Of a stretch of 64,000 nucleotides of DNA, positions 20,730 through 60,134 are shown piece by piece. The translations under genes were made by a program, and so were the position numbers. How positions within the stretch are numbered: position 1 is the first letter of the stretch; each line of letters begins with the position of its first letter. The notes under the pieces were generated by a model. That model was not told where the DNA came from. It worked only from the letters and a program-made list of their open reading frames with translations, and ran no database searches. Source of the stretch: an uncultured Candidatus Saccharibacteria bacterium (GTDB taxonomy: Bacteria > Patescibacteriota > Minisyncoccia > UBA6257). Location of the stretch: the NCBI GenBank assembly GCA_964479005.1, contig CAYZJA010000001.1:224001-288000 (forward strand), written 5' to 3'.

Positions 20730-20821
<92 letters not shown>

Positions 20822-28680: not shown

Positions 28681-29808
28681 TTACTCCTCGATTTCCTTTT
28701 GCAGTTTTTCCAAAAGTTCTTTTGCCTGCGCAGAAACTTTCTTAGGAGTCCTAATCCTTATTTTAACATATAAATCCCCTTGGCCTGGAGCGTCAAAATG
28801 TTTAACCCCGTTTCCTCTGATACGAAAGATTTCTCCAGATTCTGTTCCAGAAGGAATTTTTAAAAGAATCTTTTTCTCTCTATCTTTTAATGAACTAAGA
28901 ATTTTTACCTCTTTTTTAGTTCCAAGCACTGCCTCGGTAAAACTTATGTACAAAGTCGTATGCAAATCATCGCCCTTTCTTTCAAATGCCAAGTGTCGCC
29001 TAATTATTATTCTAATGTATAAATCCCCGCTTAATCCATCCAATATCCCAACTTCCCCTTCTTTTCTTATCCTGATTGTTTCTCCATCTCTTATTCCAAC
29101 AGGAATATCCACTTTGATCTCTTTGTTGCCATAATAACGGCCATCACCTCCGCAAGTTTTACATGGCTTTTCTGGAATTTTTCCTCTTCCTTTACATTTT
29201 GGGCATTCAATTATTTGAGTAAACTCTCCTAAAAAGGTCCTGCGTAATTCTCTAATCACCCCTTCTCCTTTACAATTTGAACATTCTTTTAACTTGGAAT
29301 TTGGTTCATATCCTTTGCCATTACAATGTTCGCAAACAAGATAAGTTTTAAAGGAAATATCCTGTCTTGCTCCAAAAGCCGCTTCTTCTAAATCTATTTC
29401 TAGATTAACCTCAATGTCTCTCCCCTTATTTTGATATGCGCTTTTCCTTTTTCTTGTAGAAGTAGCTGCTTCTTTGAAAAAATCAGAAAAAATGTCCCCA
29501 ATATCAAAGTTTCCAGAAAAACCAAATGGCGATTGGGATCCGCCTTCTTGCCATTCAAATCCGGGAAATCCCTGTTGAAATCCAGCTCCTGCTCCCTCAA
29601 ATACACGGCCAAATTTATCATACTGGGTTCTTTTCTCTTTATTAGATAAAACCTGATATGCTTCGTTTATCTCTTTAAATTTTTCTGAACTACCTCCTTT
29701 ATCTGGATGATGCTTATGAGCTAATTTATAAAAAGCTTTTTTGATTTCTTCTGGAGAAGCTGAGCGCGAAACACCTAAAATATCATAATAATCTTTCATA
29801 TTTATCAA
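28681..29808 (-). CDS. dnaJ: Molecular chaperone DnaJ
   Basis: A J-domain with the HPD motif and four CxxCxGxG zinc-finger repeats are present. Confidence 0.9.
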
Positions 29809-30776
29809 CTAATAATAATTTCTTGTTTTTCTACTCCAATACGTTTAATTTTTAAGTATTTAAGAGATAAAAGAATTTGAAGAAAAATCCAACTAACTGC
29901 AATTAAAATAATAGAGAATATAATATTAAAAAATCTTAAGAAACTTATCATAAATAAAAATACCAAAGCGCCAACTCCAATTTTTAATAAAGGAGAAAAA
30001 GTTTGCCAACGGGATTTTAATACTTCTATTATCAAAGACGACAATTTTTCCTTACCAGAGACAGGATATTTTAAAAATTCAGAAAGCTTTGATTTCGTTT
30101 GTTGTAAAAGAGGTTGATTAACTATTGAATTAAAAACTCCTAAATCTGGCGTTTGTTGTTCAATATATTTTCCTAAGATATCATCAATTGTTCCAGATAG
30201 CTGTAAATTAGAAAAAGGTTGTATAGCTCCTGCTTGAGAAAACATAGAATCCAAAGCTTTAGTTCCTTCTTGTTCTATTAATGTCGTATTTTTCTGAAAA
30301 TAAGCCAAACTAGATAAAGATATTACCAAAACTAAAAGAATATAAAAAGAACTTTTACCAACTATACGCATCCATTGAAGATTTATTAAGGAGTTATATT
30401 CAGTTTTTATTCTTATTCTTGATAATAAAAAGAGGACAAAAATACCTCCCCAAATAAGCCAGATAATTTTACCAAATTGATGGCTAAGAAATAATGGAAT
30501 GAATGCGCTTGCGCTAATAATTAAATTCCAAAACAGAAAATCTTTAATCGGAAGTATTAAAAAGAATATTGGAAGTATACCTAACCCCATAATCCAAAAA
30601 ACACAAAATCCAATTAAATTAGCGTTGCTAACCCCTTGTAATAATCCAATAAAAAAAAGAGACCCTAAAGCAAAACAAGCTACAATTAAAATACCTATGA
30701 TAGAATTTTTAAAGAAAATTGTTCTATCTTGATAAGCTAATTTGTAACTGTTTAAAAAATTAGGGTTCTTAGCCAT
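29805..30776 (-). CDS. Polytopic membrane protein inserted between dnaK and dnaJ
   Basis: Multiple TM helices are present, and the stop overlaps the dnaJ start by 4 nt. Confidence 0.5.
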
Positions 30777-33274: not shown

Positions 33275-34006
33275 TTATGATGTTAAATTAGTAATTGCCC
33301 TTAAAATAGCTATATTTCTTTTATAAGGCATCCTTTTAGGGCCTAATATTCCTAAAATCGCCCTTGGTCTGGAAACAACGCTAAGTAAAGAACTGAATTG
33401 ATCAGACCGCACAAAAGGATTCTCTTTCCCTATTAGGATAAGCGGATTTTCATCAATCTTTATGTTTTTTAACTTTTCATCCAATTTTTCCAAAGATTCG
33501 GCTATCTGTTGAAAAAATCTACAAGTTAATAATTCTTCTTCAAGCATTTCCGCAAACATATACTTAAACCCTTGTTTGATTATTTCATCTTCTTCAAATA
33601 AATAACAAAAACAAAACGAATGGCTCTCTTCTGATATCACATCTAATAATTTCTTTATTTCTTTTATAAAATCGATATGCTCTTTTGGCTTAGGTTTAAT
33701 TTTTAATACCTGACTCTTTAATTTTTCTTCCCATTCTTCTAAAGAATCGTTTTCGTCCTCAAAGACATTATCAATAAAAAATTTCCAGGCCTTGTCTGTT
33801 GGTATACGCCCGCTTGAAATATAAGGTTTATATAAATAACCTTCTTGAGTAAGTATTACAAAATCATTTCTAATTGTTGCTGAACTTACGCCGAGACGAT
33901 ATTTAGCATTCAAAATTTCAGAAGCAACAGGTTCACCAGTACGGGTATATTCTTTAATTAAAACTTTTAGAATATAACTGTTTCTATCTTTTAATTTTAT
34001 TACCAT
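33275..34006 (-). CDS. hrcA: Heat-inducible transcription repressor HrcA
   Basis: The N-terminal winged helix ILKVLIKEYTRTGEPVASEIL is present. The ORF-track start (TTG at 34039) overlaps the CIRCE site. The true start is probably the internal MVIKLK or the MSKIEN ATG at 34033. Confidence 0.8.
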   Translation of the reverse strand: MVIKLKDRNSYILKVLIKEYTRTGEPVASEILNAKYRLGVSSATIRNDFVILTQEGYLYKPYISSGRIPTDKAWKFFIDNVFEDENDSLEEWEEKLKSQVLKIKPKPKEHIDFIKEIKKLLDVISEESHSFCFCYLFEEDEIIKQGFKYMFAEMLEEELLTCRFFQQIAESLEKLDEKLKNIKIDENPLILIGKENPFVRSDQFSSLLSVVSRPRAILGILGPKRMPYKRNIAILRAITNLTS

Positions 34007-34032
34007 ATTATTTTCATTCTCTATTTTACTCA

Positions 34033-34059
34033 TTAGCAATCAAATGTCAAGAGTGCTAA
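34033..34059 (-). promoter_or_regulatory. CIRCE operator (HrcA binding site)
   Basis: The minus strand reads TTAGCACTC-TTGACATTT-GATTGCTAA, matching the CIRCE consensus at 17 of 18 positions. Confidence 0.8.
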
Positions 34060-34066
34060 GCGAGAT

Positions 34067-34134
34067 AAAGGTTCGGAATATTGTTTCAAAAACACGCTAA
34101 TCGCTATCGTTTTTTTCCACAACATTCCGAACCT
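34067..34134 (+). ncRNA. Conserved hairpin element, copy 2 (same family as 7289-7357, opposite orientation)
   Basis: The outer stem AAGGTTCGGAAT / ATTCCGAACCTT encloses the core ATTGTTTCAAAAACACGCTAATCGCTATCGTTTTTTTCCACAACAT. This is the reverse complement of the copy-1 core with 3 or 4 substitutions. Confidence 0.5.
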
Positions 34135-34153
34135 TCTTTTATATTTATTAAGA

Positions 34154-34353
34154 AGCAAGTATTTGTTCCTGAACGACATTAATGGAAGCAGAAGTACAAA
34201 CAAATGAAACGAACGAAAAGGAAAGCCGGAACGAGCGAAGCCACGTTAGAAGTAAACTTCTAACGTGGCGAAGCGGATTCCGGAAGGCTTCCAGAGTGAG
34301 TGAATATTGTTTGTCTCTGTTGGAATGTAGGAGTGAAGGAAAAATACTTGCTG
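34154..34353. repeat. F1 rod-like palindromic repeat element, copy B, immediately upstream of corA
   Basis: The termini and nested stems match copy A. The apex hairpin is extended to CCACGTTAGAAG-TAAA-CTTCTAACGTGG. The ORF-track start of corA (MEAEVQTNE...) lies inside this element. Confidence 0.6.
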
Positions 34354-34413
34354 AATTGTTGTCCCCTGTTTTTCCACGATTGAGTTTGCCTGACTTTATA
34401 CGTCATGATAAAA

Positions 34414-35348
34414 TGAAGCTGTTGAATAATTTAAAACATATGAGACAAATATTTAAAGGAAAAATTACTTGGGTAGATATTACCTGCCCTGTTCAAGAAG
34501 ACATTGAATATCTTCGCAAAAACTATCGTTTTCACCCTATTATCTTGGAGGAGCTTAAAACGCCTTCCCAGAGAAATAAAACCGAAGCGCACGATGGCTA
34601 TATTTTTTTAGTAACTCATTTCCCATGTTGGAACGCTGTTGAAAAAAAATCTTCCCCATGGGAACTGGATATTATATTAGATAAAAATACTCTTATTACG
34701 ATTTGTTATGAAAAAAGCACGACGATGCGTGAAGAACTTATGGAAAAAGTTTATACAAAAGATTTTGAGAATTTATATCTTAGCGACACTATAAAACTTC
34801 TTTATTTTATTATTGAATATTTTTTGGATTTTGCCATACGGCAAATTTATCACATTCAGAAAAAGATTAATGATGTGGAAAAAGACATATTCCAAGGAAA
34901 AGCAGAAGACGCAATTCCTAATATCTCCTTCGTAAAAAGAGATGTTCTGAATTTTCAAAGAATATTTAGGTATTTAAAAGAAACTCTATGTTCTTTATCC
35001 AGGCAAGGACCACGAATTTTTGGAGAAAATAAACGTATTTATTTTGACGATTTAGTCGGTGATAGCACTAAAGTAGAAAATCTTATTGATAATTTCAAGG
35101 ACACTATAGAATCATTGGAAAATACAAATAATTCCTTGATGGAACATAAAATCAATCTCTTAACCAGAATTTATACAATTCTTTCTCTTGTAACCTGGCC
35201 TACTATATTAGTCACTAGTATTTATCAAATGAATACTAGTTATTTACCTTTTACGGGTTATCCTTATGATTTTTGGCTTATCCTATTAATTGCTTTTATA
35301 CCATCAATATTAATCTTTTCTTACCTTAAAAAAAGAAAGTTTCTATAA
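34414..35348 (+). CDS. corA: CorA-family divalent cation transporter with a QMN motif in place of GMN
   Basis: The C-terminal two-TM region reads TILVTSIYQMNTSYLPF, at the position of the canonical YGMNF. The true start is probably MKLLNNL. The upstream 232 nt of the annotated ORF is the F1 repeat. Confidence 0.75.
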
Positions 35349-39566: not shown

Positions 39567-39641
39567 TGCCGTCACCGGGATTTGAACCCGGGTTACATGG
39601 ATGAGAACCATGCGTCCTAAGCCGAACTAGACGATGACGGC
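39567..39641 (-). tRNA. tRNA-Glu (anticodon CTC), CCA not encoded
   Basis: The minus strand reads GCCGTCATCGTCTAGTTCGGCTTAGGACGCATGGTTCTCATCCATGTAACCCGGGTTCAAATCCCGGTGACGGCA. The acceptor, anticodon stem CATGG/CCATG and T-arm CCGGG-TTCAAAT-CCCGG all pair. Confidence 0.8.
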
Positions 39642-59794: not shown

Positions 59795-59940
59795 GGATGG
59801 GTTTTAATTTTTATGCTTATATTTACTGGCTGGAAACACAAAGCTCCCCGCCAACGACAACCTTTCGGTCGCCCTATACCTTTCGGTATAGACCCATCCC
59901 TGAGCTCTGACGAGGAGCTTAATATCAGGGATGGGTTTTT
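59795..59940 (-). promoter_or_regulatory. Structured leader upstream of the methyltransferase with three AGGGATGGGT sites
   Basis: Two direct copies (59797, 59927) and one inverted copy (59891) of AGGGATGGGT are present. Minus-strand hairpins include CTATACC-GAAA-GGTATAG and a long stem ACCCATCCCTGA/TCAGGGATGGGT. Confidence 0.45.
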
Positions 59941-60134
59941 TATGCCATATCCTATATTAGAACTTAGGCAACTTTGATTATTTAGTTTTTACAATTAAAG
60001 AATAACATAAATTGATAAAAAGGGAAGCAGAATTGTACCCTCGTTAATTATATTAATCAATCACCATTTTAGCTTTATTTAGTCATATTTTATTGCTAAA
60101 ATAGGGTTGAATAAGACATAATTATATTATTTAT

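Follow-up and report, generated by a model that had tools for sequence, protein, structure and literature searches.

The GMN tripeptide is regarded as the universal, mutation-intolerant signature of CorA/Mrs2/Alr1 channels and as their selectivity filter. In the stretch of 64,000 nucleotides analysed here, the whole of which we call the window, a CorA-family gene on the forward strand encodes SIYQMNTSYLPF with a glutamine codon, CAA, inside this motif (Table 1). The locus thus raises the question of whether a glutamine has really taken the place of the filter glycine and, if so, what kind of channel is kept in this state.

Table 1: Features of the corA locus and its surroundings (window coordinates; TmCorA, Thermotoga maritima CorA; MjCorA, Methanocaldococcus CorA)
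Feature	Position	Strand	Basis or remark
CorA-family gene, Q-x-N type, 302 aa plus stop	34440..35348	+	Pfam; TmCorA/MjCorA sequence and fold match; 302-aa length; MRQ start; dN/dS
Promoter-like TTGCCT-17-TAAAAT, extended TG	34386..34414	+	consensus scan; overlaps in-frame ATG 34413
Glu38 = TmCorA Asp89, cytoplasmic M1 divalent-cation sensor site	34551..34553	+	E in 62/62 close members, 67/69 of all
Asp204 = TmCorA Asp253, M1-site partner	35049..35051	+	D in 61/62 close members, 65/69 of all
Pore-lining TM1 segment, N239 to Q263	35154..35228	+	ungapped TmCorA alignment
T242 = TmCorA M291	35163..35165	+	codon
Y245 = TmCorA L294	35172..35174	+	codon
W253 = TmCorA M302	35196..35198	+	codon
I256 = TmCorA T305	35205..35207	+	codon
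Filter motif Y-Q-M-N replacing Y-G-M-N	35223..35234	+	TmCorA alignment; Q and N invariant in 69/69
Gln263, codon CAA	35226..35228	+	codon
Periplasmic loop MNTSYLPFTGYPY	35229..35267	+	invariant Pro = P319 of MPEL; exceeds the TmCorA loop by about 6 residues; no E316
TM2 with clade-specific Pro288 and Ser289, then basic C-terminus KKRKFL	35268..35333	+	AF2 helix 277-298
Promoter-like TTGACA-16-TAAAAT for hrcA	34023..34060	-	overlaps CIRCE-like half site GAGTGCTAA
Long imperfect GC-rich hairpin, flanked by the divergent promoters of hrcA and corA	34190..34320		about 49% GC (31% overall); RNA fold -63.1 kcal/mol, z=-5.96
Conserved ~320-aa protein between dnaK and dnaJ	29805..30776	-	about 7 predicted TM helices; no Pfam match
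LOOT RNA (RF03000)	59856..59970	-	Rfam, 72.1 bits (gathering 46.4)
tRNA	20735..20821		
tRNA	39567..39641		

The assignment to the CorA family, already made from the sequence alone, is borne out by a full-length match to Pfam CorA (PF01544; E=1.7e-47, 162.6 bits where the cut-off is 27, covering positions 3-292 of the 292 in the profile) and by a phmmer search of solved structures, in which TmCorA entries were the best matches (E about 1e-23). An AF2 monomer model (pLDDT 90.8, pTM 0.78) shows the N-terminal alpha/beta/alpha domain, the stalk helix running into TM1 and the two C-terminal TM helices of the family, with the stalk-TM1 helix (residues 196-263) ending exactly at Q263 and a 13-residue loop leading to the TM2 helix (277-298). 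With this model Foldseek matched TmCorA and MjCorA at TM-scores of 0.7-0.79 and a probability of 1.00. By profile and fold the protein belongs to the CorA/MIT superfamily (2-TM-GxN). The CorA equivalog TIGR00383 of NCBIfam scores 132.8 bits, below its cut-off of 200.75, and similarity to ZntB is slight (23.8 bits for profile NF007092 with a cut-off of 292; E=0.96 for the PDB entry 5n9y). Three features by which a canonical CorA is defined are lacking, namely a glycine in GxN, the hydrophobic gate and an equivalog score above the cut-off.

A mechanical ORF of 388 aa spans the region (34182-35348, + strand) and holds the CorA protein as its C-terminal 302-311 residues, with in-frame ATGs at 34413 and 34440. 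The ATG at 34440 is most likely the true start, because nearly all homologues are 302 aa long and begin with MRQ and because the conserved promoter ends at 34414. Homologue length and promoter position also lead us to reject the ATG at 34413 and the 388-aa ORF, which is an artefact of the open frame, and the start at 34414 given in the sequence-only reading has to be corrected, as it lies one base out of frame with both ATGs. The putative promoter (pattern TTGnnT-N17-TGnTAAAAT) is the one block that an alignment of 6 loci shows to be conserved between hrcA and corA. The corA gene appears to carry its own predicted promoter, with cysS-dnaB-recR close behind. It ends about 25 nt before ATG 34440, which leaves no space for a riboswitch or leader RNA, and an Rfam scan of 33950-34500 gave nothing credible of this kind that could name a ligand. 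An exact-sequence look-up of the protein returned no record.

The GC-rich hairpin in the same spacer has no Rfam match (33950-34500); in its place unrelated GC-rich inserts are found at loci L001 and L005 and none at L004. A small RNA and a mobile palindromic element are both conceivable for the hairpin. At hrcA, the full TTAGCAGTC-N9-GAGTGCTAA is seen in L001, L002 and L004, and the CIRCE-like site is the expected HrcA operator. The ~320-aa predicted membrane protein encoded between dnaK and dnaJ recurs in L001 (5381-6337), L003 (4263-5234) and L004 (5374-6342).

The loop after TM1 reads IYQMNTSYLPF, and in the phmmer alignment to solved structures there is no gap against TmCorA from N288 to P319, a segment over which the query stretch NLLTRIYTILSLVTWPTILVTSIYQMNTSYLP lies. 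As this alignment is ungapped and anchored at N288, T295, P303, Y311, M313, N314 and P319, Gln263 occupies the Gly312 column. The sequence-only reading, which had proposed a Gln for the Gly of GMN, therefore looked at the right column, and a motif column elsewhere in the protein is excluded. The Asn of the signature, which forms the ring at the pore entry, is kept (N265, equivalent to N314 of TmCorA, in 69/69 Q-x-N sequences), while the position of the Gly holds Gln263, invariant in the clade. Instead of the YGMNF...MPEL loop we find YQMNT..LPFT, in which Y, M, N and P are kept but G, F, E and L have been lost. The Gln is encoded by CAA in each of the five related loci for which DNA was at hand.

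The motif column was inspected across homologues, as had been suggested from the sequence. A search of 5.8 billion proteins yielded 98 relatives, and deeper members came from an exhaustive HMMER search over 1.84 billion representatives. Of the 98 relatives, 64 are at least 53% identical, and every one of these has [YF]-Q-[MT]-N; Q-x-N is invariant in 69 of 69 related sequences reaching about 36% identity to the query. A tally over 247 sequences gave GMN (88), QMN (56), SMN (14) and QTN (12) besides many degenerate motifs; departures from GMN, be it SMN, AMS, QIN or fully degenerate forms, are widespread in the Patescibacteria radiation of ~300-aa CorA proteins. A neighbour-joining (NJ) tree unites 67 Q-[MT]-N sequences in a single clade, down to 36% identity to the query, and this remodelled Q-[MT]-N clade has 70% bootstrap when eight pore and motif columns are removed. 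Q, N314, P303 and P319 are invariant among 62 close clade members, and pairwise dN/dS values of the seven closest genes are 0.05-0.10, dS reaching about 1.2. When one genome was scanned for each GTDB species, 29 species representatives had the complete signature; their labels are Paceibacterota, Minisyncoccia, Parcubacteria or generic, and the closest of them is CAZUBI010000001.1 with 96% protein identity. The Gln is thus neither an error nor drift; it is conserved lineage-wide.

F-Q-[MI]-N occurs in a separate clade (90% NJ bootstrap), which occupies the same genomic slot and whose gate is otherwise canonical (M291, L/V294, A302, T305). It includes L035 (5056-5898), L044 (6001-6903), L046 (6001-6903), P0066, P0102 and P0106, and may represent either an evolutionary intermediate or a G to Q change that arose independently. 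The tree suggests a path from GMN through Q[MI]N with a canonical gate to Q[MT]N with a remodelled gate, the node uniting all Q sequences having 43% bootstrap. A covariation of Met/Thr313 with Trp/Leu302 was considered and dropped, as the deep QTN subclade carries Trp302. In the Moranbacteria-type syntenic corA of about 40 species representatives (most of L041-L088, for example L064, 6001-6903), L-A-M-S or else SMS/SMN replaces Y-G-M-N. The A-M-S and S-M-S forms have lost both the Gly and the Asn of the signature and retain the M291/L294/T305 pore; we found no description of this motif loss in the literature searched.

The exchange of the glycine is real, as the sequence-only reading had it, but it is not the isolated change that was described there. 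Comparison of 66 Q-clade sequences with 85 GMN relatives of the same radiation revealed 16 positions that are at least 90% conserved in the Q clade and shared by at most 10% of the GMN relatives. Among them are changes along the ion pathway: M291 to T is found in 95% of the Q clade (1% of the GMN relatives), L294 to Y in 92% (0%) and, in TM2, I337 to P in 97% (0%); V290 to L is another of the Q-clade-specific pathway changes. In the outer pore, position 302 is Trp in 56/69 Q-x-N sequences and F/L/M in relatives, and position 305 is Leu/Ile in 66/69 and Thr/Ser in relatives. In TmCorA, M291, L294, A298 and M302 constitute the 'MM stretch', a hydrophobic gate (PMC4504495), a partly hydrated Mg2+ is held by the ring of Gly312 carbonyls and the ring of Asn314 side chains, T305 and T299 are reported as determinants of Co2+ selection, and T305L stops Co2+ transport (PMC3629940). 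Where this gate together with the polar T305 would be expected, the clade of the window has T, Y, S, W and I/L, whereas 85-87 GMN relatives show M/V/I, L, S/A/T, F/L and T/S, and all other motif groups (GMN, SxN and even those without the Asn) keep M/V/I291, L/F294 and T/S305. Taken with the roles of these sites in TmCorA, this means that the glycine of the filter, the gate residues and the single polar threonine have been replaced together.

Other parts of the pore were retained. The window protein has N239, T246 and P254 at the places of N288, T295 and P303, and N288, T295, P303, Y311, M313, N314, P319 and the C-terminal basic cluster are kept in the clade. Its strictest conservation falls on the pore and filter (Q, N, T295, P303, N288), with T291, Y294 and W302 nearly invariant. 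The D89/D253 sensor pair is present as E38/D204. The deep QTN subclade no longer has an acidic residue at the D89 site, with Gln in L037, L038, L040 and L066 and Gly in L039, and regulation by cation sensing is therefore not clade-wide.

The loci of this deep Y-Q-T-N subclade (L032, L037, L038, L040, L066) also contain 9-16 in-frame TGA codons each in corA, cysS, dnaB and neighbouring genes and zero TAA or TAG in frame. Between about 45 and 65% of the TGA codons (4/9 to 9/14) align with Trp of the window's proteins, and at conserved Trp positions four of the five loci use TGA more often than TGG. The pattern indicates that TGA is read as Trp (table 4), which has already been reported for the Minisyncoccia family JAKLIH01 (gTranslate preprint, bioRxiv 10.64898/2026.05.24.727570); no tRNA-Trp(UCA) was found inside these short loci.

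The gene had also been called a CorA paralogue, and this part finds no support. A tblastn search found one CorA homologue and no second one in the 64 kb window, and a word-indexed profile search listed no second CorA on the same long contigs among its best 120 matches. The corA gene lies between the divergent heat-shock operon hrcA-grpE-dnaK-(7-TM ORF)-dnaJ on the reverse strand and a co-directional cysS-dnaB-recR run on the forward strand, an arrangement found at every Q-type locus with enough flank, the gap between corA and cysS being 4-74 nt in the Q-type loci L009-L032. The same slot holds YGMN proteins in related Patescibacteria (L036, L043, L071), F-Q-[MI]-N proteins with a canonical gate in L035, L044 and L046 and L-A-M-S proteins in about 40 Moranbacteria-type loci. 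All of these CorA proteins are therefore positional orthologues, and the filter diverged in place.

Gene content and synteny of L009, L048, L053 and others match Paceibacteria- or Moranbacteria-type Patescibacteria, and the deposited labels 'uncultured Candidatus Saccharibacteria', 'Bdellovibrionales' and 'Bathyarchaeia archaeon' are thus probably generic or wrong. In the S-M-N relative P0067 (L008, 7249-7899) corA divergently adjoins a cation-efflux gene of the CDF family (PF01545), which hints at a linkage to metal homeostasis in the P0067 lineage only.

We regard the descriptive part of these results, that is the CorA fold and family, the Gln in the Gly312 column, the replacements in the pore and the residues retained, as very probably correct. 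As for function, our preferred reading, which we consider reasonably probable, is that the protein is the resident CorA of its lineage and works as a divalent-cation channel, probably for Mg2+, with a rebuilt ion pathway in which the Gln/Asn filter is derived and the gate has shifted. The pathway of the positional orthologue would have been rebuilt and then frozen under purifying selection, and a pentameric channel gated by intracellular binding of cations is predicted to form still. Hydrated cations would meet the Asn ring as in CorA, and in place of a bare ring of Gly carbonyls the amide side chains of five Gln may provide a second polar ring that modifies or supplements it. The main hydrophobic barrier would have been shifted outward to W302/L305, and the old gate region would now be lined by the hydroxyls of T291, Y294, T295 and S298. 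That the residues lining the pore are under strong selection speaks for a functional pore, and Mg2+ is the likeliest substrate because the housekeeping CorA slot is filled and the gene is apparently co-transcribed with essential genes; that Mg2+ is still the main substrate is a view to which we lean slightly.

Against this preferred reading stand reports on canonical proteins. Single substitutions in GMN are reported to abolish Mg2+ transport in CorA/Mrs2 (PMC4613352, PMC11919701), and together with the T305L report this means that two residues of the window protein would each be inactivating on a canonical background. The equivalog score below the cut-off and the loss of the sensor acid in the QTN subclade would likewise count against it.

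A bolder version is that the Q-x-N clade represents a distinct pore of the CorA superfamily, in which a Gln ring joins or replaces the Gly-carbonyl ring, the gate has moved from M291/L294 to W302/L305, and selectivity or gating is unlike that of the characterised CorA, Mrs2, Alr1 and ZntB. We put this forward tentatively; if true, the stepwise path from GMN through Q[MI]N with a canonical gate to Q[MT]N with a remodelled gate would reveal the compensatory changes by which the 'essential' glycine can be dispensed with.

Among the rival explanations, a changed selectivity or transport mode is the main one and a serious one, although we think it less probable than the preferred reading. The protein would then transport mainly Co2+, Ni2+, Zn2+, Mn2+ or Ca2+, or be proton-coupled as ZntB is, and Mg2+ would be supplied otherwise. 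Motif variants in the superfamily do go along with other substrates, such as GVN/GIN in ZntB (PMC4613352, PMC9276622), and filter, gate and T305 changed together here, the last being one of the two reported determinants of Co2+ selection in TmCorA; the low equivalog score and the reported loss of Mg2+ transport upon single GMN substitutions point in the same direction. On the other hand, the gene occupies the slot of the GMN CorA of sister lineages with no second copy seen in the window or among the matches listed, the similarity to ZntB is negligible, and a scan of ten multi-TM ORFs in the window, which covers a fraction of a genome, gave nothing that resembles MgtE, CorA or NRAMP and no other Mg2+ transporter. 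Less probable still, and unlikely, is a non-conducting protein kept for another role, such as a membrane-anchored cation sensor, regulator or structural partner. Substitutions of G312 and T305 do inactivate transport on canonical backgrounds (PMC3629940, PMC4613352), and relatives without even the Asn (62 'no N' sequences and the Moranbacteria-type AMS proteins) suggest that the scaffold can drift from the classical filter, but it is the pore-lining and filter positions that are most strictly conserved in the clade, the dN/dS values are low, and selection for an idle pore is hard to explain. An error of sequencing or assembly in the Gln codon, which had been named as a possible objection, a pseudogene or a misaligned motif column can be ruled out as the source of the Gln, since CAA is two base changes away from any Gly codon (GGN), the Gln recurs in 69 independent sequences and 29 species-representative genomes from many samples, the corA ORF is intact and under purifying selection, and the anchored alignment to TmCorA is free of gaps.

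The statement of the sequence-only reading that a Gly to Gln change has not been characterised agrees with the literature searched, in which we found no paper pairing QMN with CorA, no published description of a Q-x-N variant of CorA and no discussion of the loss of the CorA motif in Patescibacteria. In an orthologous gene the glycine, T305 and the M291/L294 gate were all replaced, and the new state was kept across at least 29 species-level genomes. The Q-x-N clade is thus a natural experiment in compensatory evolution on ion selection and on the reason why GMN is conserved, and second-site changes that rescue a filter without Gly become approachable through the wild type, the Q clade with a canonical gate and TmCorA. 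It also follows that the label 'Magnesium transporter CorA' in Patescibacteria spans GMN, QMN, QTN, SMN and AMS filters, and predictions of Mg2+ homeostasis for these reduced genomes therefore stay provisional.

Compared with known systems, the window protein shares with TmCorA and MjCorA the alpha/beta N-domain, the long stalk helix continuous with TM1, the short loop and TM2, and it has kept Tyr-x-Met-Asn, the Pro of MPEL, N288, T295, the P303 kink, the acidic pair at the D89/D253 sites and the C-terminal KKxK. It differs from TmCorA in Gly312 to Gln, M291 to Thr, L294 to Tyr, M302 to Trp, T305 to Leu/Ile and the Pro in TM2, as well as in D277 to Asn, the longer loop without E316 and an N-terminus that is about 50 residues shorter. 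The Zn2+ transporter ZntB (GVN/GIN) of the same superfamily is a precedent for a changed middle residue of the motif going along with a changed substrate, but ZntB retains the Gly whereas the window protein replaces the Gly itself (QMN), and sequence similarity between the two is marginal. A natural replacement of the motif Gly in a CorA/Mrs2-type protein is known from the monocot OsMRS2-4/-5 (AMN), which are uncharacterised (PMC4613352); these are eukaryotic paralogues in multigene families with Gly to Ala, whereas the window protein is a bacterial positional orthologue with Gly to Gln and a remodelled gate. The syntenic CorA proteins of other Patescibacteria occupy the same slot, are likewise ~302 aa long and show 31-40% identity; they keep M291, L294 and T305, and Q312 in combination with T291, Y294, W302 and L305 is found only in the clade of the window.
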